Shown here piece by piece: positions 1 to 29,248 of a stretch of 64,000 bases of DNA. The stretch lies in NCBI RefSeq assembly GCF_044324875.1, contig NZ_CP172185.1, one strand, 5' to 3'. Position 1 is the stretch's first letter. Each line of letters begins with the position of its first letter. Position numbers and translations under genes: made by a program. The stretch comes from Escherichia coli. GTDB lineage: Bacteria > Pseudomonadota > Gammaproteobacteria > Enterobacterales > Enterobacteriaceae. The notes below the pieces were generated by a model. It worked only from the letters and a program-made list of their open reading frames with translations. It made no database searches and was not told where the DNA came from.

Positions 1-124
1 TTAAAGAGAAAGGGCAATATCCGATGAATAAAGTCGCGACCGATGATATCGGGTTTGCGATTTATCAGGTGGATTTGAGTAAGTAATACACTTCTTTTTC
101 GGCCTGCAAATCATCAACCGCATC

Positions 125-200
125 CGGCATTTATTGGCGGATGCGATGCTGGCGCATCTTATCCGCCCTACAAGTCATACACCGTAGGCCGCGCATCCTG
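125..200. repeat. REP-like palindromic unit(s) downstream of ytfH
   Basis: GC-rich imperfect palindromes (ggcggatgcgatgctggcgcatcttatccgccctac) resembling E. coli REP/PU elements; boundaries approximate. Confidence 0.4.
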
Positions 201-203
201 CAG

Positions 204-584
204 TTACGCCGCACGTTCATCCCGCACCGCCAACACCTCGGGCAAATTCAACTCAATCCAGTCCGCCAGTGCAGCAACCTTTTCGCTCACCTGCTCGCCC
301 AGCGGCGTGAGGCTATATTCCACATGCGGCGGCACCACCGGATACGCGATACGGTTAAGAAAACCATCCTGCTCTAGCGCCTGTAACGACTGCGCAAGCA
401 TCTTTTCACTCACCCCGCCCATTTTGCGCCGCAGGTCGCTAAAGCGATGAGTACCTTCGCGTAGCGCCACCAGAATCAACACCCCCCAACGGCTGGTGAC
501 GTGTTTCAAAACCTCGCGCGACGGACACTGTTCAGCGAAGAGATTTCCCTCTTTCAGTTGTTGCGACAGGCTAACCTGACTCAT
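204..584 (-). CDS. ytfH: HxlR-family transcriptional regulator YtfH
   Basis: Track ORF 204..695; start moved to internal Met (MSQVSLSQQLKEGNLFAEQCP...) giving 126 aa, the length I recall for YtfH; winged-helix HxlR-like sequence. Confidence 0.85.
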   Translation of the reverse strand: MSQVSLSQQLKEGNLFAEQCPSREVLKHVTSRWGVLILVALREGTHRFSDLRRKMGGVSEKMLAQSLQALEQDGFLNRIAYPVVPPHVEYSLTPLGEQVSEKVAALADWIELNLPEVLAVRDERAA

Positions 585-672
585 CTCATACTTACCTTTT
601 TGTACGTACTTACTAAAAGTAAGTTTAGGTGTTAGCGTATTTAAACACAAGACAAAACGATGGAGACTTCCT

Positions 673-1533
673 ATGATCGCAATTACTGGTGCCACTGGCC
701 AACTTGGACACTATGTTATTGAATCCTTGATGAAAACGGTTCCTGCCAGCCAAATAGTGGCTATCGTTCGTAATCCGGCAAAAGCCCAGGCACTGACAGC
801 ACAAGGCATTACCGTGCGTCAGGCTGACTACGGCGATGAAGCCGCACTGACATCTGCACTTCAGGGAGTGGAAAAACTGCTACTGATCTCTTCCAGCGAA
901 GTGGGGCAACGTGCCCCGCAGCATCGAAATGTTATTAATGCCGCTAAGGCGGCGGGCGTGAAATTTATCGCTTATACCAGCCTGCTACATGCTGATACCT
1001 CCCCGCTCGGCCTCGCCGATGAGCACATCGAGACGGAGAAAATGCTGGCTGATTCTGGCATTGCTTACACCTTGCTGCGCAACGGCTGGTACACCGAAAA
1101 CTATCTCGCCAGCGCCCCGGCAGCACTGGAGCACGGCGTATTTATCGGTGCCGCGGGCGATGGCAAAATTGCCTCGGCAACGCGGGCAGATTATGCGGCA
1201 GCTGCGGCGCTCGTGATTAGCGAAGCCGGTCACGAAGGCAAGGTTTACGAGCTGGCGGGCGATAGTGCCTGGACGCTGACACAGTTAGCGGCAGAGCTGA
1301 CCAAACAGAGCGGCAAACAGGTTACCTATCAAAATCTGAGCGAAGCCGATTTCGCCGCGGCACTGAAAAGCGTCGGACTGCCCGACGGACTGGCGGATAT
1401 GCTGGCGGATTCTGACGTTGGCGCATCGAAAGGCGGTCTGTTTGATGATAGCAAAACGCTGAGCAAATTGATTGGCCGCCCAACGACAACGTTAGCCGAA
1501 AGCGTAAGCCATCTTTTTAATGTTAATAACTAG
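673..1533 (+). CDS. qorB: NAD(P)H:quinone oxidoreductase QorB (YtfG), NmrA-like
   Basis: 286 aa ORF with N-terminal Rossmann motif ITGATGQLG; synteny with ytfH and ytfF. Confidence 0.9.
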   Translation: MIAITGATGQLGHYVIESLMKTVPASQIVAIVRNPAKAQALTAQGITVRQADYGDEAALTSALQGVEKLLLISSSEVGQRAPQHRNVINAAKAAGVKFIAYTSLLHADTSPLGLADEHIETEKMLADSGIAYTLLRNGWYTENYLASAPAALEHGVFIGAAGDGKIASATRADYAAAAALVISEAGHEGKVYELAGDSAWTLTQLAAELTKQSGKQVTYQNLSEADFAAALKSVGLPDGLADMLADSDVGASKGGLFDDSKTLSKLIGRPTTTLAESVSHLFNVNN

Positions 1534-1632
1534 TTAATTAAAGTGGCATCCTCCCGCATCCTCTCTGATAATGACGGGATGCCGGGAGCAATCATGTCTG
1601 CTTCCTGAACGTTTCTTCTGACAGACCAATGG

Positions 1633-2607
1633 ATGCCAGTAATGATTAGCGGCGTGCTGTACGCCCTGTTAGCAGGGTTGATGTGGGGGCTTATTTTTGT
1701 CGGGCCGTTGATCGTGCCGGAATACCCGGCGATGTTGCAGTCTATGGGGCGTTATCTGGCGTTAGGGTTAATTGCGCTGCCCATTGCCTGGCTGGGACGC
1801 GTGCGTCTGCGTCAGTTGGCGCGTCGCGACTGGCTTACCGCCTTGATGCTCACCATGATGGGCAACCTCATCTATTACTTCTGCCTTGCCAGTGCCATTC
1901 AACGTACTGGCGCGCCTGTTTCCACGATGATTATCGGCACCCTGCCGGTGGTGATTCCTGTCCTCGCCAATCTGCTTTATAGCCAGCGTGACGGTAAACT
2001 CGCGTGGGGGAAACTCGCCCCGGCGCTGGTTTGTATTGGCATCGGCCTGGCATGTGTAAATATTGCTGAGTTAGACCACGGACTCCCCGATTTTGACTGG
2101 GCACGTTATACCTCTGGCATCGTGCTGGCGTTAGTTTCCGTGGTCTGCTGGGCGTGGTATGCCTTGCGCAACGCCCGTTGGCTGCGGGAAAACCCAGACA
2201 AACATCCGATGATGTGGGCGACGGCGCAGGCGCTGGTCACGCTGCCGGTTTCGCTCATCGGTTATCTTGTCGCCTGTTACTGGCTGAATACGCAAACGCC
2301 GGACTTCTCCCTACCTTTTGGCCCCCGTCCGCTTGTATTTGTTAGCCTGATGATTGCGATAGCTGTGCTTTGCTCATGGGTCGGCGCACTTTGCTGGAAC
2401 GTCGCCAGCCAGCGATTACCGACCGTGATTCTCGGGCCGCTGATTGTTTTCGAAACGCTGGCAGGTTTGCTGTACACCTTTTTACTCCGCCAGCAAATGC
2501 CGCCGCTGATGACGCTAAGCGGTATCGCGCTGTTAGTGGTTGGCGTGGTCATTGCAGTCAGAGCAAAACCGGAAAAGCCTTTAACTGAATCTGTCTCAGA
2601 AAGTTGA
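1633..2607 (+). CDS. ytfF: DMT/EamA-family inner membrane transporter YtfF
   Basis: 324 aa strongly hydrophobic multi-helix ORF; alternative start at 1642 (MISGVLY) possible. Confidence 0.85.
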   Translation: MPVMISGVLYALLAGLMWGLIFVGPLIVPEYPAMLQSMGRYLALGLIALPIAWLGRVRLRQLARRDWLTALMLTMMGNLIYYFCLASAIQRTGAPVSTMIIGTLPVVIPVLANLLYSQRDGKLAWGKLAPALVCIGIGLACVNIAELDHGLPDFDWARYTSGIVLALVSVVCWAWYALRNARWLRENPDKHPMMWATAQALVTLPVSLIGYLVACYWLNTQTPDFSLPFGPRPLVFVSLMIAIAVLCSWVGALCWNVASQRLPTVILGPLIVFETLAGLLYTFLLRQQMPPLMTLSGIALLVVGVVIAVRAKPEKPLTESVSES

Positions 2608-2665
2608 CACGCTGGCAGTGAGTTAAATAAGCCTCTGCTACGTAAGGGTTATAGCATTTGCCTTA

Positions 2666-2688
2666 AAGATGCATTTAAAATACATCTT
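2666..2688. promoter_or_regulatory. NsrR operator (inverted repeat AAGATGCATTT-A-AAATACATCTT) upstream of ytfE
   Basis: Perfect 11-1-11 inverted repeat seen about 27 bp upstream of the ytfE start codon; matches the known NsrR binding motif; nsrR itself lies at 32551..32976. Confidence 0.8.
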
Positions 2689-2714
2689 ATATTATTAAGA
2701 ATGAGGTATCAGCT

Positions 2715-3377
2715 ATGGCTTATCGCGACCAACCTTTAGGTGAACTGGCGCTCTCTATTCCTCGCGCTTCGGCTCTGTTTCGTAAATATGATATGGATTA
2801 CTGCTGCGGCGGTAAGCAAACGCTGGCGCGTGCGGCGGCACGTAAAGAGCTGGATGTTGACGTCATTGAAGCTGAACTGGCAAAGCTTGCTGAACAACCG
2901 ATTGAGAAAGACTGGCGCAGCGCCCCGCTGGCTGAAATCATCGACCATATCATCGTGCGCTACCACGATCGCCACCGCGAGCAGCTGCCGGAGCTGATCC
3001 TGCAAGCGACTAAAGTCGAGCGCGTTCACGCCGACAAACCGAGCGTGCCAAAAGGGCTGACAAAATACCTGACCATGCTGCATGAAGAGCTTTCCAGCCA
3101 CATGATGAAAGAAGAGCAGATCCTCTTCCCGATGATCAAACAAGGCATGGGCAGCCAGGCGATGGGGCCAATCAGCGTAATGGAAAGCGAGCACGATGAA
3201 GCGGGCGAACTGCTGGAAGTGATCAAACACACTACCAATAACGTCACACCGCCGCCAGAAGCCTGCACCACCTGGAAAGCGATGTATAACGGCATTAATG
3301 AACTGATTGATGACCTGATGGAGCACATCAGCCTGGAAAATAATGTGCTGTTCCCACGCGCGCTGGCGGGTGAGTGA
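2715..3377 (+). CDS. ytfE: Iron-sulfur cluster repair di-iron protein YtfE (RIC)
   Basis: 220 aa [36 protein letters not shown]...; hemerythrin-like repeats. Confidence 0.93.
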
Positions 3378-3384
3378 TTTGTTC

Positions 3385-3418
3385 GATCAACGATCCTGAC
3401 ATGGGCAGGATCGTTGAT
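3385..3418. terminator. Hairpin between convergent ytfE and island gene A (likely bidirectional terminator)
   Basis: Inverted repeat gatcaacgatcctg / caggatcgttgat with a 7-nt loop in the 44-bp gap between two convergent stop codons. Confidence 0.5.
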
Positions 3419-3421
3419 TAT

Positions 3422-4906
3422 TCAGTCATTCAGTGGAAATAATTCATTGTTGTAACTGGTGTACTCACCTTCAACGGTAAGCAAACTGCCGTTTTTATCA
3501 AGATGCGCCGCATCGAGTTGTCGAGTCTCATTACGCCGCTTCGCATCACGTACCAGTCCATCGCCTACGTAATAAATATAGTGGTCATCATGAGCAAAGG
3601 TATCTGATAATTGACCATTGGCGTATTTAAACCACGTCCATTGGCCTTTCAGTTCAAAATGCTCAACCGTGTCTTCATCAATAAAATACGTATAGCGATC
3701 GTCATGTGCTAAATAATTTAATGGTGTGCCATCGGGGCTTTTATACCACTGCCATTGCCCATTAATATCAAAAATAGTCACATCATCGCTCGCAATGAAA
3801 TAAACTTTATCCCCTACAATATTAACACCTTCCTGTAATTCTTGTTGCGGGTCTGGTAAATGAATGACCGACAGCGTTTTTTCGACCGCAGAAACATACT
3901 TCACCAGATAGAGCGAATCTTTATATTGCGCCACATTCTCCGTCAGCGGGCGAAAATATTCCGGATCAACATCAGGAATAGTCGCAACCCGGCAGTCATT
4001 AGCACGCCTGGAAGCATCACGCGTCAACCATGTTACTTTATCCCGCTGCAGGTCAAACGTACTCCGACAATTTTTACCGAACGCATAACGTTTCTCCCCG
4101 TCTTTATCGCGATAAATTAGCAGTGAACCGGCTATCCAGCGCACAATATGAAAGGTATCCGGATCGGCGTTGATGGCATCTCCATTCACAAAGACCTGTG
4201 ATTTAGTCCGCCAGATTGTATCCCAGGGTCCCGGATTACTTTTGCTTTGGCAGCTATTGGGGGAAAATAAAATAATTCGTCGGTCCCAGGATTTAACGCC
4301 AAGAATAGAATACCCTTGCGCACTGCCCAACCAGTGCCCCTGAAAGTAAATATTGTGACGATCTTTCAGCACATCCGCGGAATCACCTGAACCGCCGACT
4401 TGTTGCAACGAATCCATATCGACCTGCTTTTCGTCGCGATTATCATCCGTGCGTTCACCATCAAAATAGAGACTATCTTTATCGGCGGCAAAACGCCCCC
4501 ACGCGCGGAATGTTGCAACATCAACTTTCGGTGTTCCCGGCGGGTTCTGGACTATTTTCCCTGCCCATAAAATATGGCGGCCATCGGTTAACCAGTCGAA
4601 ACGCCAGCCGCCATTTGACCGATAGCCAGAGAAGGGAGCCACCCGCACAAAATCATTATTGATATCATCAGGTGAATCGTATTCACCATCAGTGCCGTTG
4701 GGTACGCGGCGAAGTTGTTTGAACTTTACCTGCGGCAAATGAATATCCGGAAAATCGATACCGTAACCGTCACTATCTTCAACGATATATTTTGTGCCTT
4801 GCCCCCACGGCTGGTAGTAAAACGCAGCATAAGGCACGCCGGAGCAGGCTATCGAAGCGGTTGAAAATAAAGCCAGTGCGAGACAAACGGGTTTAATTGG
4901 CAACAT
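3422..4906 (-). CDS. Secreted/lipoprotein-like protein of unknown function, island paralog A (494 aa), repeated DK..Y(F/Y) and W.W aromatic motifs
   Basis: Long uninterrupted ORF; N-terminal hydrophobic signal (MLPIKPVCLALALFSTASIACSG); shares several conserved blocks with the upstream gene (WLTDGR.ILWAGK, FAADK.S.YFDG.RTDDN, HWLGSA.G, VDPEYF); absent from K-12 at this locus as I recall. Confidence 0.7.
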   Translation of the reverse strand: MLPIKPVCLALALFSTASIACSGVPYAAFYYQPWGQGTKYIVEDSDGYGIDFPDIHLPQVKFKQLRRVPNGTDGEYDSPDDINNDFVRVAPFSGYRSNGGWRFDWLTDGRHILWAGKIVQNPPGTPKVDVATFRAWGRFAADKDSLYFDGERTDDNRDEKQVDMDSLQQVGGSGDSADVLKDRHNIYFQGHWLGSAQGYSILGVKSWDRRIILFSPNSCQSKSNPGPWDTIWRTKSQVFVNGDAINADPDTFHIVRWIAGSLLIYRDKDGEKRYAFGKNCRSTFDLQRDKVTWLTRDASRRANDCRVATIPDVDPEYFRPLTENVAQYKDSLYLVKYVSAVEKTLSVIHLPDPQQELQEGVNIVGDKVYFIASDDVTIFDINGQWQWYKSPDGTPLNYLAHDDRYTYFIDEDTVEHFELKGQWTWFKYANGQLSDTFAHDDHYIYYVGDGLVRDAKRRNETRQLDAAHLDKNGSLLTVEGEYTSYNNELFPLND

Positions 4907-4939
4907 AGCATCATCCTGAAGCTGTTAGCGTGTAAGAGG

Positions 4940-6103
4940 TTATTTAAATAAGGGTTTCAGACCGCTCGGGGGTTGCTTCACCGTAGACCATTCTGCTGAA
5001 ATGGGGTTGTAACGCAGCCATTCAGTTTGCTCGTAGTGTTTTCCGTCGATTGTGGTTAATCCACTAAGTTCGTGACTGTAGAGTTGCCCGTCTGTAGTGA
5101 TATACATGTAGCCAGTTACCATGCTTTCCCTATCTAATAATTCAAAAACATCCTCTGGCTTGGGTGTTATCAGTTCACCTTCACCTAATGCATTGGTTTT
5201 AACCTTATAGAATTGATCTTTGTAATAGCCTACCGACCCGGTAAGTAAGGTAAAATATTCCGGATCAACTCCTTTAAGCGTTTCATAAACACAATCACTG
5301 CCCGCAGGCGTCGCTTCTTGTTTGAGCCTGGACACATTCTTCAAACCGATATTAAATAACGCACAACTGTGACCAATATCTTCCAACGTATAGTCATGCT
5401 CGCCGCTTTTATCGCGATAAACTAACCGTTCGCCAGGCATCCAGCGGATTATCTGAAAGGTTTTGCGATCGGCGGGCAGCGGCTTGCCATTAACAATCAC
5501 CTGCGAATTTGTCATTACAACAAATTGCAGGGATGAATCATGCCGCAGGATTTGAAACCCGTCAGCGCTGCCCAACCAGTGCCCCTTATGCCAAAGACTA
5601 TTTTTATCACGCAGTAAATTCCAGATGTCCGTCTCTTCAAGCGTTGACATATCCACCTGCTTATCACCGCTATTATCATCGGTACGCTGGCCGTCAAAAT
5701 AGATACTGCGTTTATCAGCAGCGAAAGCGCCGAATGCCTTAAAACTGGCGGCATCGACATTAGGTTCACCGGATGGATTTTTCAGGACTTTGCCTGCCCA
5801 AAGGACAGAACGTCCATCGGTGAGCCAGGTATGCTGGCAATCCCCCTCGTCATCACAGTCGAACTTATCGGGATTAAAATCGGAGAGCAGCCGGGTTTCT
5901 TGTTTATTGGCTAAATTGGCAATGCGCCAGAGGCGGGAAAAATTAACGTCTGGTAATTCGGAGAGGATCTCATCTTCTTTTCCCTTCTGTTCGGCAACGT
6001 AAACCGTGCCTTTTTCATGCTGGCGGTAATAAAAATCCGCGCCCCAGGAAGGTGAAATGGAGAGAGGTAATGCGGCGATTAATAACCAACTGCGCTTAAC
6101 CAT
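4940..6103 (-). CDS. Secreted protein of unknown function, island paralog B (387 aa from MVKRSWLLIAALPLSISPSWGA)
   Basis: Track ORF 4940..6331; start placed at the internal Met that begins a Sec-type signal peptide; paralogous to 3422..4906; lies 33 bp upstream of it on the same strand (probable two-gene operon). Confidence 0.65.
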   Translation of the reverse strand: MVKRSWLLIAALPLSISPSWGADFYYRQHEKGTVYVAEQKGKEDEILSELPDVNFSRLWRIANLANKQETRLLSDFNPDKFDCDDEGDCQHTWLTDGRSVLWAGKVLKNPSGEPNVDAASFKAFGAFAADKRSIYFDGQRTDDNSGDKQVDMSTLEETDIWNLLRDKNSLWHKGHWLGSADGFQILRHDSSLQFVVMTNSQVIVNGKPLPADRKTFQIIRWMPGERLVYRDKSGEHDYTLEDIGHSCALFNIGLKNVSRLKQEATPAGSDCVYETLKGVDPEYFTLLTGSVGYYKDQFYKVKTNALGEGELITPKPEDVFELLDRESMVTGYMYITTDGQLYSHELSGLTTIDGKHYEQTEWLRYNPISAEWSTVKQPPSGLKPLFK

Positions 6104-6195
6104 AGTGAACTCTGCAACGAGTGGCAAAGATTCACGGTAAGCTCGCGCCTGAGGGCTGTCTATGATGGTAGATATTTTTAAGAATATATAAAGAC

Positions 6196-6217
6196 AAAGG
6201 CACCCGCAGGTGCCTTT
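6196..6217 (-). terminator. cycA rho-independent terminator
   Basis: Hairpin aaaggcacc-cgc-aggtgccttt immediately downstream of the cycA stop, followed on the minus strand by a T-rich tract. Confidence 0.6.
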
Positions 6218-6236
6218 CAGAGCTATAAACGCAGCA

Positions 6237-7640
6237 TTACTTCGCCATGCGTTTTTTACCAATAAACAACCAGCCCAGCCCCAGAGCGATAAACCACAGC
6301 GGGGTAACCAGCAGCGCCTGGCGGGTATCATCTTCCAGTGTCAGCAGCACGACCACGAACACAAAGAATGCCATACATACCCAGCACATCAGCTTGCCGA
6401 GCGGCATCTTGTAGATCGACTTATCATGCAGGTGTGGACGCTGTTTGCGGTACACCAGGTACGAGCAAAGGATAATCGTCCAGACGAACATAAACAGAAT
6501 CGCGGAAACGGTTGTAATCATCGTGAACGCGCCAATCACGCTGGGATTCACATACAACATCACCACGCCGCCGAGCAGACAGATACAAGAGAAGGTCAGC
6601 CCTTTCGCGGGTACTGCGCGCTTAGAGAGTTTAGCGAACGCTTTCGGTGCCACACCTTCCTGCGCCAGACCAAACAGCATACGGCTGGTAGAGAAGACAC
6701 CGCTGTTAGCGGAAGACGCCGCAGAGGTCAGCACCACAAAGTTGATCACGCTGGCAGCCGCAGGCAAACCTACCAACACAAACAGCTCAACGAACGGGCT
6801 TTTCTCCGGGACTACCGAACTCCACGGCGTCACGGACATAATCACAATCAACGCGAAGACGTAGAACATAATGATACGGATCGGAATGGAGTTAATCGCG
6901 CGTGGCAGTGATTTCTCTGGATCTTTGGTTTCCGCAGCTGTTGTACCTACCAGCTCAATCCCCACGAAAGCGAAAACCGCTATCTGGAATCCGGCAAAGA
7001 AGCCACTTAAACCTTTCGGGAACCAGCCGCCGTCATTCCACAAATGCGCGAATGACGCTTCTACACCGGTCGGTGACTGAAAGTGCATCGCCACCATGAC
7101 CAGGCCGACGACTATCAGCGACACAATGGCGACGATTTTGATCATCGCAAACCAGAACTCCATCTCACCGAACATTTTCACGGTGGCGAGGTTGAGCGTC
7201 AGCAGCAGCACTATCACCGCCAGCGAGGCGACCCAGTCGGAGAGATCGGGGAACCAGAACTGAGCATAAGCCGTGATCGCCACCACGTCTGCCATACCGG
7301 TTACAACCCAGCAGAACCAGTAAGTCCAGCCGGTGAAATATCCTGCCCACGGCCCGAGTAAATCGGAAGCGAAGTCACTAAAAGATTTGTATTCCAGATT
7401 CGAAAGCAGCAATTCCCCCATTGCCCGCATCACGAAAAAGAGCATAAAACCAATGATCATATAAACAAAAATGATCGACGGCCCGGCAAGGCTAATCGTT
7501 TTGCCGGACCCCATAAACAACCCCGTACCAATGGCACCGCCAATGGCAATAAGCTGAATATGTCGGTTTGTGAGATTGCGCCGTAGCGACTGTTCAGCCG
7601 GAGCCTGATCATCGGCAACGACTTTTACCTGATCTACCAT
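6237..7640 (-). CDS. cycA: D-serine/D-alanine/glycine:H+ symporter CycA (APC family)
   Basis: 467 aa ORF, MVDQVKVVADDQAPAEQSLRRNLTNRHIQLIAIGGAIGTGLF...; amino acid permease signature. Confidence 0.95.
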   Translation of the reverse strand: MVDQVKVVADDQAPAEQSLRRNLTNRHIQLIAIGGAIGTGLFMGSGKTISLAGPSIIFVYMIIGFMLFFVMRAMGELLLSNLEYKSFSDFASDLLGPWAGYFTGWTYWFCWVVTGMADVVAITAYAQFWFPDLSDWVASLAVIVLLLTLNLATVKMFGEMEFWFAMIKIVAIVSLIVVGLVMVAMHFQSPTGVEASFAHLWNDGGWFPKGLSGFFAGFQIAVFAFVGIELVGTTAAETKDPEKSLPRAINSIPIRIIMFYVFALIVIMSVTPWSSVVPEKSPFVELFVLVGLPAAASVINFVVLTSAASSANSGVFSTSRMLFGLAQEGVAPKAFAKLSKRAVPAKGLTFSCICLLGGVVMLYVNPSVIGAFTMITTVSAILFMFVWTIILCSYLVYRKQRPHLHDKSIYKMPLGKLMCWVCMAFFVFVVVLLTLEDDTRQALLVTPLWFIALGLGWLFIGKKRMAK

Positions 7641-8786: not shown

Positions 8787-9425
8787 ATGCCCGGGCGCTT
8801 TGAACTAAAACCAACCCTGGAGAAAGTCTGGCACGCGCCGGACAATTTTCGCTTCATGGACCCGCTGCCGCCGATGCATCGTCGGGGGATCATTATTGCC
8901 GCCATTGTATTGGTGGTCGGATTTCTGCTTCCATCTGATGATACGCCCAACGCGCCAGTGGTGACGCGTGAAGCGCAGTTAGATATTCAGTCGCAATCAC
9001 AACCGCCGACAGAAGAACAGCTGCGGGCGCAGCTAGTTACGCCACAAAATGATCCTGATCAGGTGGCCCCGGTCGCTCCAGAACCTATACAGGAAGGCCA
9101 GCCAGAAGAGCAGCCGCAAACTACCCAAACGCAACCATTCCAGCCAGATAGCGGAATTGATAATCAATGGCGCTCTTACCGTGTCGAACCCGGTAAAACG
9201 ATGGCGCAGCTGTTCCGCGACCACGGACTGCCCGCTACCGATGTCTATGCAATGGCGCAGGTAGAAGGCGCGGGTAAGCCGCTGAGTAATTTGCAAAACG
9301 GGCAGATGGTGAAAATCCGCCAGAACGCCAGCGGCGTGGTGACGGGCTTAACCATTGATACGGGGAATAATCAACAGGTCCTGTTTACCCGCCAGCCGGA
9401 TGGCAGTTTTATTCGTGCGCGGTAG
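8787..9425 (+). CDS. ytfB: Cell-division OapA/LysM-like protein YtfB
   Basis: Track ORF 8751..9425; start at MPGRFELKP gives 212 aa; single TM segment then Pro/Gln-rich linker and C-terminal OapA-like domain. Confidence 0.85.
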
Positions 9426-9525
9426 ATGAAGGGTCAACCAAAAGCCAGCTAAGGATTGTCTCTTTGATGACCTTACGTCTGGCTTCCAGTGCCTGAGGTG
9501 AAACCATACTGATATGTTGACATCC

Positions 9526-9547
9526 TCCACGCCCTGAAGGACGTGGA
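9526..9547. repeat. IS200/IS605 subterminal hairpin, tnpB-proximal (presumed RE)
   Basis: 6-bp stem TCCACG/CGTGGA with loop CCCTGAAGGA, 25 nt beyond the tnpB stop. Confidence 0.7.
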
Positions 9548-9571
9548 TCCCTGCTACGTTCAGGCTGTCGC

Positions 9572-10768
9572 CTAAATCATTTCGGGGGGTTCCTGCTTCA
9601 ACGAGCGGCCTGACTGCACCATCTCTCCACAGGCAAGAACGGCGTGCCCCGCCGCTAAAATGTTACGAGCGCCATTTACATCGGCGTTCGCTGTATATCC
9701 ACATGCCTGGCATCTGAATTTACTTTGTGACAGGCGATTTTCTTTCGCTGTATGACCACAGCACGCGCAACGCTGGCTTGTGTACGCTGGCGGAACAGCA
9801 AGCACCTGACCGCCACGCCAGAGCTGCTTGTACTCAAGCTGGCGGCGCATTTCATACCAGCCCTGATCCAGTATCGAACGGTTTAAACCTGATTTTGCCC
9901 GGACATTGCGCCCCGGCTGGCTGACCGTACCCGCTGCTGACTTTGACATGTTGCTGACCTTCAAATCCTCAATGACTATCATTGCGTGGTTTTTGCTGAC
10001 GGTCGTTGTGACTTTGTGAAGGTAGTCCCTGCGGATATTTGCGATACAGGAATGCAGTCGCTGTATTTTGCGTTTCTGCTTCTGCCAGTTATTGCTGAAT
10101 TTGACCTTGCGGCTTAACTGTCGCTGAAGTCTCGCCAGCTTCTTCTGGTTTTTCTGAAAACTGTTTACAGGCTCAAAGACTGTGCCATCTGACAGCGTGG
10201 CGAGTTTAGCCACGCCAGCATCCAGCCCGACCATTGATGCTGAAGGGTGAACCGGAGTTGATACTTCATTTTCAGTCTGAATACTGATGTACCACTTACC
10301 GCAGGACTGGCTGACAGTGACATTTTTCACAACACCCGTGACCTGACGGCTATTCCGGTAGCGCATCCAGCCAAGTTTCGGCAGAAAAATACGGCTGTTT
10401 TCCTGATCGAGCTTAACGCCCTGCGGGTAGCGGAATGCATCATTCTGTCCCCGCTTTTTGAATCGGGGAAAAGCAGCCCGCTTCTGGAAGAAGTTTTTGT
10501 AAGCCCGCTCAAGGTCTTTCAGTGACTGTTGCAATGGCTGTGAGGGCGAATCTTTAAGCCATTGCGTTTCAGTGGCGTTTTTCCACTCAACCAGCCAGGA
10601 AGCCATTTTCCCGTAAGGGATGTATTTATTACCGGCCTCATGATTCTCATTCTGACGTGCCAGAGCACGATTGAAAACGAAACGACATGCGCCTGCGAAG
10701 CGCCTCATTTCACGCTCCTGTTGACCACCGGGTCTTAACTGGAATTTAAATGCCTGTAGTCGTTTCAC
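9572..10768 (-). CDS. tnpB: IS200/IS605-family TnpB (OrfB), RuvC-like RNA-guided nuclease family
   Basis: 398 aa; N-terminal [13 protein letters not shown]..., RuvC-I-like IEDLKV, C-terminal zinc finger CACCGH...CQACG and RuvC-III-like DVNGARNI; full length with no internal stops. Confidence 0.9.
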
Positions 10769-10775
10769 AGGCCAA

Positions 10776-11390
10776 ATGATACTTTGGTCTGTGAGAAAAG
10801 AAACCGATATCCGGCGTGGAAGGCATTGTGTTTTCCTGATGCATGTTCACCAGGTCTTTGTCACCAAATACCGACGTCAGATTTTTGACCATGACGCGAC
10901 AGAAAAACTACGCACTTACTTTTCAAATGTATGTGCTGATTTTGAAGCTGAACTGGTTGAAATGGATGGCGAACCAGATCACGTCCATTTGTTAATTAAC
11001 TATCCTCCCAAACTGGCGATATCCAGTCTGGTAAACAGCCTCAAAGGCGTATCGGGTAGGTTACTGCGACGAGATCGACCAGATATTGCAGTCAGGTATT
11101 ACTACAAAGGCGTTTTGTGGAGTCCTGGCTATTTTGCCAGTAGCTGCGGAGGTGCGCCAATATCCGTCATCCGCCAATACATTGAACAACAGCAAACACC
11201 TGATCAGGTGGAAAACCGCGCCTTATATCCCCGCCCTGAAGGACGGGGTTTTACGGCGCACCGGATAAACCAGGCCAAGCGTATGCTGGTTGATCAAATA
11301 ATATCCCCCAAGCGCAGCAATATTAATATTCACCTGCAATGGGTCGATATCTGGCTTAAAAATATTGTGTTTCCTCCCTTCATCCAATAA
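10776..11390 (+). CDS. tnpA: IS200/IS605-family HuH transposase TnpA; ORF reads through the subterminal hairpin, so the functional C-terminus is uncertain
   Basis: HuH motif ([11 protein letters not shown]) and catalytic Tyr region ([22 protein letters not shown]); about 55 extra codons follow and cross the 11229..11248 hairpin. Confidence 0.75.
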
Positions 11391-11483
11391 GGATTCCATT
11401 AACTGCAAGTGCGCATGATTAATTTCTAAGAGACACTGTGATTTTGCATAATGCACACCTTTACTTTGGTTTTCACTATGCAC
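11223..11483 (-). pseudogene. ytfA-like regulator fragment whose 3' end is encoded by IS-end sequence
   Basis: 86-aa ORF at the position where K-12 carries ytfA (as I recall); its last codons overlap the IS hairpin, suggesting the IS inserted into or next to the gene's 3' end. Confidence 0.3.
11229..11248. repeat. IS200/IS605 subterminal hairpin, tnpA-proximal (presumed LE)
   Basis: 5-bp stem CCCCG/CGGGG with the same loop CCCTGAAGGA as the hairpin at 9526..9547. Confidence 0.7.
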
Positions 11484-11832
11484 AATTTTTAAAAACCAGG
11501 GATTAGCAATATAATAATCCCAGGTAAAATCGATGATTTTTTCAATGGCTTTTTGTGGCTGGTTAACCTGCTGATTAACAAACGCACCGATACCGACAGC
11601 GTAGAATAATTACATACCGCACAACAAGAATGTATGGTGTAAGGCGTTGTCAGTCATCTCCCTCCCTGGGTGCATCGTTATATCCGTGATGAGCGATTTT
11701 TGATATTAATATCTTTCACCATCCGCTATTTTCACTACTTCAGAAAACAAACTTATTTTTATTAATATCGATTCTTTTTCTTTGAGCATTTAACTACGAT
11801 ATTTATAAAAAAATTAAACAGGCAAAAATACA

Positions 11833-12627
11833 ATGACATTACCAACCACTATTTATTCATTTCCTGCATATTCACCCCGTTTTTCGTCCACCGACAAACC
11901 AGTAAAATTAAAATTTCATCAATACGCACGCGCTACATTACTTTCAAATCGTGGAAGAGATCATAATTGCGATGGCAGACATACTGTTGAGATCCACAAA
12001 CTAGATCTCTCAGACTGGCAAGCATTCAATAAACTAGCGATGGCGTGTAATGCTTACGATGGAATAACAATGAATGGTGATAATTCTTTTGGATGGAACC
12101 ATGAGGCTACATTAGATAATATTCACGCCCAGAAATACAATAAAGCTTACGCGGGTGCGAGGTTAACCGCAGAACTGAAATATTTATTGCAAGATGTCGA
12201 ATCCTTCGAACCCAACAGTAAATACACAATACACGAGGTTGTTTTGGGTCCAGGTTATGGTACTCCAGACTATACCGGCCAAACGATAGGATACGTTGTA
12301 ACCCTTCCTGCCCAAATGCCTAATTGCTGGTCATCTGAACTACCAACAATCGATCTTTATATCGACCAACTTCGCACTGTTACAGGCGTTTCTAATGCCC
12401 TCGGATTCATCATTGCTGCATTGCTAAACGCGTATTCTGATTTACCCCATGATTTGAAAATTGGTCTGCGTTCCTTATCAAGTTCAGCAGCAATCTACTC
12501 GGGTTTGGGTTTCGAGCGAGTGCCGCAGGACCGAGACATAAGGTGCGATCATATGCATCTAACGCCAGCAAACCATCCTGAATTATGGACACAAGAGAAT
12601 GGTGAATGGATCTACTTACGAAACTAA
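11833..12627 (+). CDS. yjfZ: Uncharacterized protein YjfZ
   Basis: 264 aa ORF at the expected syntenic position next to rplI, preceded by a very AT-rich upstream region (11650..11832). Confidence 0.7.
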   Translation: MTLPTTIYSFPAYSPRFSSTDKPVKLKFHQYARATLLSNRGRDHNCDGRHTVEIHKLDLSDWQAFNKLAMACNAYDGITMNGDNSFGWNHEATLDNIHAQKYNKAYAGARLTAELKYLLQDVESFEPNSKYTIHEVVLGPGYGTPDYTGQTIGYVVTLPAQMPNCWSSELPTIDLYIDQLRTVTGVSNALGFIIAALLNAYSDLPHDLKIGLRSLSSSAAIYSGLGFERVPQDRDIRCDHMHLTPANHPELWTQENGEWIYLRN

Positions 12628-12650
12628 TACCTGACGAAAAATAGAAAGCA

Positions 12651-12677
12651 AAACGCCGACCACTGGTCGGCGTTTTT
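12651..12677. terminator. Bidirectional rho-independent terminator between yjfZ and rplI
   Basis: Hairpin aaacgccgacc-actg-gtcggcgttt flanked by T-runs on both strands, between convergent stop codons. Confidence 0.7.
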
Positions 12678-12697
12678 ACGTCTCGTTGAATAACGAA

Positions 12698-13159
<462 letters not shown>

Positions 13160-13188
13160 TCAAAGTCGTATTAATGGACCGTGACCGA

Positions 13189-13735
<547 letters not shown>

Positions 13736-17877: not shown

Positions 17878-19629
<1,752 letters not shown>

Positions 19630-28720: not shown

Positions 28721-29122
28721 TTAGTGTGAATATTCTTCTGTAATTTCAGCCAGATCCAATGCGTTATCTACCAGCGAGGTTATCTCAAGCAGGATATCTT
28801 CAAGAGAAGATTTAAGCGATAACGCACCGAAAACAATGTAATACTCTTCATGTTGCACGCTGGAGATCCCTACCGATGACAACGGCATCATCTTCTGATT
28901 TCTTAATAAGAAGGTATTAAATTCATCTGGATTGCTGATACTACTTACCGGACAAATAAAGGTTTCGATAATCATTTGGCGGGAAGTAAATAGAATATTG
29001 ATTTGCAAATCGCCATAATCATTCATTTTAATAATTAATGCGTTCTCGCCATTTGTTACATCAATATTTTGTTCAGGTACAGTTTGCAGCGCCGTCGCCA
29101 GCGCCAACGGATTCCATGTCAT
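28721..29122 (-). CDS. yjfI: DUF2170-family protein YjfI
   Basis: 133 aa ORF at the head of the yjfIJKLM cluster. Confidence 0.8.
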   Translation of the reverse strand: MTWNPLALATALQTVPEQNIDVTNGENALIIKMNDYGDLQINILFTSRQMIIETFICPVSSISNPDEFNTFLLRNQKMMPLSSVGISSVQHEEYYIVFGALSLKSSLEDILLEITSLVDNALDLAEITEEYSH

Positions 29123-29248
29123 ATATTATTCCATATAAATTAAGTTTAAATATTAATAAAATGAATATTTGCAGTACGTAATTATCTTACCAGCTATAGA
29201 CAAAAAAAAACCATCCAAATCTGGATGGCTTTTCAAAATTCAGAGGAA

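Follow-up and report, generated by a model that had tools for sequence, protein, structure and literature searches.

The AT-rich DNA in front of yjfZ in Escherichia coli raises the question of what such a segment does when it lies between a decayed regulator gene with an insertion sequence (IS) nearby and an accessory gene: it could be a promoter silenced by H-NS, a promoter whose control has been changed by the IS, or an ordinary spacer that is simply poor in G+C. The window considered here, a stretch of 64,000 nucleotides, is E. coli chromosome and is 99.9% identical to strain ECONIH1 over the yjfZ locus, where the gene order is fklB, ytfB, the ytfA remnants with the IS, yjfZ, rplI-rpsR-priB-rpsF, yjfY and the ula operon. 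As a working model, to which we assign a probability of roughly 0.7, this DNA holds the native promoter and 5' leader region of yjfZ and forms the AT-rich core of a low-G+C patch of about 840 bp that would be controlled in the manner typical of H-NS. The features on which this reading and its competitors rest are collected in Table 1.

Table 1. Features of the yjfZ locus, with positions in the 64,000-nucleotide window
Feature	Position	Strand	Basis and description	Identity to K-12 (%)
ytfA' C-terminal fragment (TetR/AcrR, ~aa 181-215)	9409-9516	-	PGAP pseudogene in ECONIH1; tblastn 36/39 identities	
IS609-like IS200/IS605 element	9517-11263	.	1747 bp, G+C 0.50; junctions set against the K-12 empty site	
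tnpB/insQ	9572-10768	-	Pfam OrfB_IS605 E = 1.2e-34, Cas12f1-like_TNB	
tnpA	10776-11201, ORF on to 11390	+	Pfam Y1_Tnp E = 1.9e-41	
IS-end hairpin	11229-11248		CCCCG...CGGGG; counterpart near 9525-9545	
ytfA' middle fragment (TetR aa 83-181, ligand-binding domain only)	11264-11559	-	tblastn 97/105; 296 bp; G+C 0.368	96.6
Low-G+C patch	11264-12100		837 bp, G+C 0.368 (36.8%)	
Promoter-like site	11488-11515	+	TTTAAA-16-TATAAT, inside the ytfA fragment, towards yjfZ	
3-ketoacyl-ACP reductase relic (aa 31-58)	11563-11648	+	85 bp; blastn 79-85% to L003/L005 reductase genes	94.0
Second-deletion junction zone	11641-11668	.	28 bp; overlapping blast matches, alignments	
AT-rich yjfZ 5' region (the segment)	11650-11832	+	Composition; homology to the MFS-yjfZ spacer of island-bearing strains	90.6
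Conserved distal block	11669-11765	+	3 variable sites in 97 bp, six-allele alignment	
Perfect palindrome	11702-11713		GATATTAATATC, in the distal block	
Candidate promoter pair, distal	11731-11736 and 11754-11759		TTCACT-17-TATTTT, 8/12, weak, found by eye only	
15-nt inverted repeat	11756-11770 / 11797-11811			
Polymorphic proximal block	11766-11832	+	16 variable sites in 67 bp, six-allele alignment	
Candidate promoter pair, proximal	11782-11787 and 11804-11809		TTGAGC-16-TATAAA, weak, found by eye	
SD-like AGG	11820-11822		10 nt before the yjfZ ATG	
yjfZ	11833-12627	+	264 aa, DUF2686, Pfam E = 1.8e-151; G+C 0.421	96.9
Hairpin (13-bp perfect stem, A/T-run flanks)	12650-12676	.	Between convergent yjfZ and rplI	
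rplI, rpsR-priB-rpsF				99.3-99.6

The composition of the segment is real and non-random. Its G+C content is 0.306 over 183 bp compared with 0.517 across the whole window, equally AT-rich 183-bp windows make up only 0.28% of all those in the 64 kb, and the 64-kb minimum for a window of this length (0.257) begins at position 11678, within the segment. Seven runs of at least four A or T bases place the segment in the top 1% of windows by run count, and the description in the earlier note of roughly 180 strongly AT-rich base pairs dominated by A/T runs is thereby borne out. The window nevertheless has three or four sites of this kind, of which this is one. Among its 37 annotated intergenic spacers of at least 60 bp, which have a median G+C of ~0.46, the ytfA'-yjfZ spacer (274 bp, G+C 0.35) is the second lowest; the rlmB-yjfI spacer (126 bp, 0.246) is the sole one below it, and the ulaG-ulaA spacer (0.353) lies just above. 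The segment forms the core of a longer low-G+C patch, which takes in the ytfA fragment and the spacer and reaches through the first third of yjfZ. With a G+C content of 0.306 (segment, 183 bp) and 0.368 (patch, 837 bp) in a background of 0.517, both have the AT content of an H-NS-silenced region, and yjfZ, like genes found behind such regions, is accessory or of foreign composition (low G+C, a patchy distribution and a family restricted to Escherichia). The start codon of yjfZ directly follows the segment, and the segment lies directly 5' of yjfZ in every architecture examined (K-12, O157, ECONIH1, 201609, AHS8C65RI and 25-07338). The yjiC-type paralogue in E. albertii likewise lies behind ~500 bp of DNA with a G+C content of 0.25-0.33.

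H-NS binding in E. coli follows AT content over several hundred base pairs rather than a strict motif, and patches of such composition are what H-NS coats in this organism. Binding studies are available for the K-12 counterpart of the segment, in part from genomic SELEX, an in vitro method in which AT-rich DNA is often a hit. In that work the spacer listed as yjfZ<HNS>ytfA binds both RpoD holoenzyme and H-NS (Shimada et al. 2014, Table 1; PMC3946193) and is placed in the type-A class, among the 'constitutive' RpoD promoters (PMC3946193). Furthermore, 'yjfZ' is named as an H-NS-bound transcription unit in a ChAP-seq study (Higashi et al. 2016, S2 Table; PMC4720273), an indirect support, since the name is given in the row for rpsF. 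A weak FlhDC peak has also been reported near the yjfZ spacer. None of the expression, transcription start site (TSS) and ChIP tables searched in literature supplements mentions yjfZ, and the supplements of PMC4288151 are likewise without mention of it. A yjfZ spacer that binds H-NS and RNA polymerase is already catalogued in K-12, so that the finding is real but ordinary and the 'AT-rich promoter next to an IS' has small significance beyond annotation.

The K-12 yjfZ/ytfA spacer is also the known system that the segment most directly resembles. It occupies the same locus with 90.6% identity, its G+C content is ~20 points below the genome average, and in both cases a low-G+C patch of several hundred base pairs precedes a narrowly distributed accessory gene. 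In K-12 the spacer binds RNA polymerase and H-NS in vitro. In contrast to K-12, the window carries a different allele, in which most changes fall in the 67 bp before the ATG, and an IS609-like element 570 bp upstream that is missing from K-12. The binding of RpoD holoenzyme and H-NS is known from the literature for the K-12 allele, and the window allele would be expected to bind both proteins as well.

The segment was further probed for features that mark the classical H-NS targets. The nucleation motif used for this purpose (10 bp, TCGATAAATT or TCGATATATT) reportedly derives from Lang et al. 2007 and the wedge curvature parameters are reportedly those of Bolshoy et al. 1991, in a rough form. 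The segment contains nine motif matches with at most three mismatches, compared with 6.4 +/- 2.5 in composition-matched shuffles (P = 0.19), and the best match has two mismatches. Phasing of A-tracts at 10.5 bp is absent (resultant 0.10), and with the rough wedge parameters the modelled curvature of the segment averages 7.2 degrees/turn versus a window mean of 7.6, while its maximum reaches the 84th percentile. In modelled curvature the segment is exceeded by the ytfA fragment (11340-11560). The earlier note had called the segment typical of curved, H-NS-bound promoter DNA. The curvature is not found by either measure; the H-NS binding is upheld for the K-12 allele by SELEX (PMC3946193) and by the ChAP-seq unit name (PMC4720273), but the nucleation motif is not enriched. 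The segment thus shares its AT-richness, its A/T runs and its location at a promoter with curved H-NS targets such as the proU negative regulatory element, bgl and the hns promoter, but it differs from them in having no phased A-tracts, average curvature and no match to TCGATAAATT or TCGATATATT beyond what composition yields.

A search for the promoter itself gave candidates of low quality. A sigma-70 scan of the yjfZ-proximal spacer (9/12 or better) made no call in the window, K-12 or 201609 alleles, so that the yjfZ promoter is not located by this approach, and a terminator scan of the same three alleles made no call in this spacer. The distal candidate pair would set the TSS where the conserved block meets the variable one. 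The K-12 counterpart of the proximal pair is GTGAAC-16-TATAAA. The best promoter-like site of the neighbourhood lies outside the segment, in the ytfA fragment (Table 1), and the density of such sites in 11200-12750 (5 found) is not above the 4.7 expected from shuffles. This last result bears on a comparison with the 'promoter islands' of the Ozoline group, which are reportedly AT-rich, contain many overlapping promoter-like sites, are bound by RNA polymerase and H-NS and are poorly transcribed. Similar to these islands, the segment is AT-rich, lies beside horizontally acquired-looking DNA, has no evident dominant promoter and, in its K-12 form, binds both proteins in vitro. Unlike the islands, it shows no excess of promoter-like sites over shuffled sequence.

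Taken together with the binding studies, these observations are consistent with a mechanism in which RNA polymerase would bind at weak sigma-70-like hexamers in the segment while H-NS would polymerise over the low-G+C patch, with yjfZ held at low expression under laboratory conditions. The silencing of yjfZ by H-NS binding is a step that we infer. Two deletions, also present in K-12, left yjfZ no more than 274 bp from a TetR gene fragment, and the IS609-like element split that fragment later, 570 bp upstream of yjfZ.

An alternative account is that the segment is a plain AT-rich spacer, the product of a low-G+C yjfZ module and the AT bias of non-coding DNA, with a weak constitutive promoter and with H-NS exerting no meaningful effect in vivo in this strain. 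The placement of the K-12 spacer in the 'constitutive' RpoD class (PMC3946193) agrees with this account, as do the lack of motif enrichment and of predicted curvature and the presence of three other spacers in the window that are nearly as AT-rich. On the other hand, the same table flags the spacer for H-NS (PMC3946193), the ChAP-seq study names yjfZ as H-NS-bound (PMC4720273), and the low G+C extends over the 837 bp of the patch (36.8% G+C), the scale of hundreds of base pairs on which H-NS tracks AT content. We regard a plain spacer as unlikely.

The structural history of the locus can be read from other strains. Four locus architectures were encountered among complete genomes. The type I locus (ETEC H10407 and EC21Z-137) contains ytfB, an intact ytfA encoding a 215-residue TetR/AcrR protein, and a divergent operon that extends up to rplI and encodes an SDR reductase, a sugar-phosphate isomerase/epimerase-family protein, an enoyl-CoA hydratase, a CoA-transferase, a fumarate-reductase-like flavoprotein and a three-gene TRAP transporter; yjfZ is absent. 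The type II locus (201609, AHS8C65RI and 25-07338) is organized as in type I, but the TRAP genes, which H10407 has in this place, are replaced by an MFS transporter gene followed by yjfZ. The type III locus (K-12) has lost the operon as well as the N-terminal part of the TetR coding region, and the type IV locus (this window, ECONIH1 and O157) is a type III locus with an IS609-like element in the TetR remnant.

Compared with strain 201609, a 545-bp deletion took TetR residues 1-82 with the helix-turn-helix, the whole 212-bp spacer between the divergent genes and 88 bp from the start of the reductase gene, while a second deletion of ~7.3 kb took what was left of the operon together with 79 bp downstream of the MFS gene. 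The total missing is ~7.8 kb, comprising the DNA-binding half of the TetR gene ytfA, the divergent promoter and a six-gene catabolic/transport operon, with five enzyme genes and the MFS transporter gene lost and the relic of the reductase gene left between the two deletions. A CRP site, TGTGATCACTATCGCA, has been reported in H10407 (PMC4287617), and in alignment it falls in the divergent spacer that is deleted from the window. An intact ytfA homologue has its TetR_N domain at residues 19-61, whereas the window keeps only residues 83-215, in two pieces that are separated by the IS; because TetR_N is missing, ytfA in the window is a pseudogene and not a functional regulator. The C-terminal piece (G+C 0.47) was identified with the intact TetR of EC21Z-137 as the tblastn query, and the DNA of the middle piece is 97% identical to intact TetR genes. 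Since ytfA is reported to be always present in E. albertii and E. fergusonii (PMC6790063), the truncation is the derived state. The reductase relic (tblastn 18/28) contains two in-frame stops.

The DNA from ~11641 to the yjfZ ATG corresponds to the yjfZ-proximal ~190 bp of the MFS-yjfZ spacer (269 bp) in type II strains. Within the junction zone of the second deletion, the reductase gene is similar in sequence to the MFS-yjfZ spacer found in island-bearing strains. The window has the spacer-like version of this zone and K-12 and O157 have a more reductase-like version, a difference that may stem from two events or from later recombination; the crossover point is not fixable because over ~28 bp the parents are alike and the window differs from K-12. 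Both deletion junctions are present in K-12 too. The structural event that borders the segment is a deletion scar common to K-12 rather than the end of the IS. The K-12 ytfA pseudogene, annotated as 'missing N-terminus', is the corresponding gene-loss scar, with the same two junctions and the same truncated TetR gene; the window remnant differs in being additionally split by the IS and in the 28-bp junction zone. The earlier note had placed the segment between an IS element with a ytfA remnant and yjfZ. The remnant is indeed upstream and yjfZ downstream, but the IS is not adjacent, as it ends 387 bp before the segment, with the 296-bp ytfA fragment and the 85-bp reductase relic in between. The local picture is thereby corrected to one in which a 7.8-kb deletion scar shared with K-12 borders the region, the IS insertion is ancient and widespread, and yjfZ is accessory.

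Of 5426 complete E. coli genomes, 2519 (~46%) contain the yjfZ upstream region, and 2225 of the 5426 have the deletion architecture (at least 80% of 11200-12700 covered). The window allele belongs to a minority, with 274 genomes at 95% identity or more and 2215 in the 90-95% band, and the closest allele is that of the type II strain 201609 (96.6%). By the earlier note, identity to K-12 in sequence and expression, with no H-NS occupancy, would speak against its proposal; in sequence the two alleles differ, with 15 substitutions and 2 indels in 181 bp. This region is the most diverged piece of the locus relative to K-12, and its changes are concentrated in the last 67 bp ahead of the ATG. H-NS-bound DNA has been reported to diversify faster (PMC4720273), and the identity of 90.6% here, versus 96.9% for the yjfZ coding sequence and more than 99% for the ribosomal protein genes, fits that report. 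Insertions of IS1 into the same yjfZ spacer occur in other strains.

The uneven distribution of differences suggests a second alternative, in which the distal block with its palindrome GATATTAATATC would bind a dedicated transcription factor for yjfZ. The contrast between the distal (3/97) and proximal (16/67) variable sites yields a Fisher P of 7.5e-5, a value that is merely indicative because the six alleles are related, and the contrast may reflect recombination history alone. The palindrome is invariant in all six full alleles and a related half-site lies 56 bp downstream, but the allele alignment shows that this second copy is not conserved, and a 12-bp palindrome in DNA of 70% AT is estimated to arise by chance at roughly the 0.1 level. 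Moreover, the neighbouring TetR regulator has lost its DNA-binding domain and no factor is known for the site. A specific operator is improbable.

Alternatively, the IS could have modified the regulation of yjfZ relative to K-12, either by transcriptional read-out from tnpA or by interrupting a tract over which H-NS spreads. The element has the hallmarks of the IS200/IS605 family (a Y1 TnpA and a TnpB, divergent genes, no target duplication and hairpin-bearing ends), and its TnpB is 98% identical to that of IS609 from O157. The tnpA gene is co-directional with yjfZ and has lost its stop codon in this strain (TAG to CAG), which extends the open reading frame to 11390. Furthermore, the deletion removed a terminator-like hairpin located just after the MFS gene where the island is present, although this hairpin was recognized by eye and the scan made no call, and the IS (G+C 0.50) sits between the C-terminal ytfA' fragment (0.47) and the AT-rich patch (0.37). 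Against these points, the IS ends 570 bp from the ATG and the 837-bp patch is contiguous on the yjfZ side, and the G+C-rich hairpin followed by TTTT at the IS end (11229-11254) could stop read-out. The identical IS/ytfA' junction is found in 1744 of 5426 complete E. coli genomes, O157 included, and the IS-free state of K-12 is the minority among deletion-type strains. The insertion is thus an old, common one, and it does not represent a regulatory event particular to this strain. An effect of the IS on yjfZ is quite improbable.

That the segment encodes a structured leader, an sRNA or a small protein is scarcely credible: it contains a 15-nt inverted repeat and 21-31-codon frames on both strands, but the changes in other alleles break the repeat without compensation and rule it out as a conserved structure, the frames lack homology support and lie in hypervariable or AT-biased sequence, the RNA fold of 11650-11860 is no more stable than shuffles (z = -0.64), and Rfam 15 scans of 9000-13500 and 11500-11950 gave nothing near threshold in the segment (best E = 5.8, far below gathering scores).

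The gene downstream of the segment provides several minor leads, together with the hypervariable 67 bp, the conserved palindrome and the IS1 insertions in the spacer. The yjfZ gene is an accessory gene, found in ~46% of complete genomes, and not a universal E. coli marker. The DUF2686 family is restricted to Escherichia and consists of YjfZ and its paralogue YjiC. A plasmid origin of yjfZ was considered and rejected, as all 'plasmid' matches are mislabelled chromosomes or the yjiC paralogue. A search of the PDB with the YjfZ sequence gave no match. A single-sequence AF2 model was discarded (pLDDT 35), and a model from a shallow alignment is poor (pLDDT 44, pTM 0.43) with a GNAT-like order of strands and helices; all of its top 50 Foldseek matches in the PDB are GNAT acetyltransferases. 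A GNAT-like topology of YjfZ is thus a lead only, held with low confidence.

Two further readings, which may hold together, are speculative and very improbable: that the distal block is a selected, conserved operator or promoter accompanied by 67 variable base pairs, and that YjfZ is a divergent acyltransferase of GNAT fold silenced by H-NS. If the contrast between the blocks did reflect selection, every lineage would have kept a dedicated operator or promoter, and yjfZ would be tuned or counter-silenced in an allele-specific way; if such tuning occurred, read-out from the co-directional, stop-less tnpA could add to it in IS-bearing strains. Downstream of yjfZ, the hairpin between this gene and the convergent rplI is likely to be a bidirectional terminator.

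The AT-rich DNA upstream of yjfZ can be divided into two blocks that differ in their variability among six aligned alleles. The proximal block, lying directly before the yjfZ start codon, is variable at 16 of its 67 positions, whereas only 3 of the 97 positions in the distal block vary. Selection, relaxed constraint, or recombination history may each account for this contrast. The distal block also contains a 12-bp perfect palindrome, GATATTAATATC, that is unchanged across all full alleles. Related 10-mers are present 56 bp downstream (11760–11769) and within the ytfA fragment (11320–11329), and the palindrome could be either a chance product of AT-rich DNA or a putative protein-binding site.

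Immediately 5′ of this region is a double deletion scar that K-12 also carries; in this strain, the scarred DNA further includes the two pieces of the TetR/AcrR regulator remnant ytfA′ (11264–11559 and 9409–9516). Approximately 7.8 kb has been lost at the scar. The missing DNA encoded residues 1–82 of the TetR protein, an MFS transporter, and five enzymes, and it held a divergent promoter bound by CRP; an 85-bp reductase relic is the remainder. The version of the 28-bp junction zone found in this strain differs from that of K-12 and O157.

IS1 elements are present in or near this locus in other strains. In strain HCP17S3_I4, an IS1 element (1888–2585 of the extracted locus) takes the place of all sequence beyond ~115 bp 5′ of the yjfZ ATG, and in NZ_OZ501674.1 an IS1A lies inside the stretch matching 11200–12700. 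Therefore, the AT-rich yjfZ spacer may be a repeated IS1 target. In the IS609-like element that splits ytfA′, the TAG stop codon of tnpA in O157 SS17 is replaced by CAG, lengthening the open reading frame by 61 codons, past the end of the element and into ytfA′ in antisense; tnpA is marked incomplete by PGAP, the NCBI annotation pipeline. Sub-threshold Rfam matches to RAGATH-18 (29.5 bits) and HgcC (25.2 bits) at 9504–9633 (minus strand) fall where tnpB/insQ finishes and the neighbouring IS end begins, the place in which the guide (omega) RNA of TnpB would be expected.

Features in and around the yjfZ upstream region
Feature	Coordinates	Remark
tnpA ORF of IS609-like element	10776–11390	stop codon lost
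ytfA fragment with the highest predicted curvature nearby	11340–11560	
Double deletion scar	11563–11668	
Distal block	11669–11765	
Palindrome	11702–11713	
Proximal block	11766–11832	
yjfZ	11833–12627	
ulaG-ulaA spacer	19276–19629	G+C 0.353, very AT-rich
rlmB-yjfI spacer	29122–29247	G+C 0.246, lowest of any spacer in the window

The yjfZ product belongs to the DUF2686 family, which is confined to Escherichia and has YjfZ and YjiC as members. Its low-confidence AF2 model (pLDDT 44) has a predicted GNAT-like topology, and GNAT acetyltransferases make up all 50 of the 50 best PDB matches to this model in Foldseek. The upstream region of yjfZ is found in only ~46% of complete genomes, despite a proposal to use the gene as a universal qPCR marker for E. 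coli (PMC11057252). Furthermore, yjfZ is frameshifted in the island-bearing strain AHS8C65RI (2792–3587 of that locus), suggesting that the gene is dispensable.

In E. albertii (4400–5000 of the extracted locus), a yjiC-type DUF2686 paralogue flanked by a GPW_gp25-family gene and uxuR is preceded by ~500 bp with a G+C of 0.25–0.33, and thus both DUF2686 paralogues have very AT-rich upstream regions. Like the K-12 yjfZ/ytfA spacer, the ulaG-ulaA spacer carries an 'HNS' flag in Shimada et al. 2014 (PMC3946193). In a rough wedge model, the highest predicted curvature nearby falls in the ytfA fragment and not in the yjfZ upstream region, at 12–19 degrees per turn (above the 95th percentile of the window).

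Elsewhere, two additional genes lie between cycA and ytfE in this strain (~3420–6100); one encodes a DKNYY-domain protein and the other a hypothetical protein of 494 aa. In EC21Z-137 and 201609, cycA directly adjoins ytfE.
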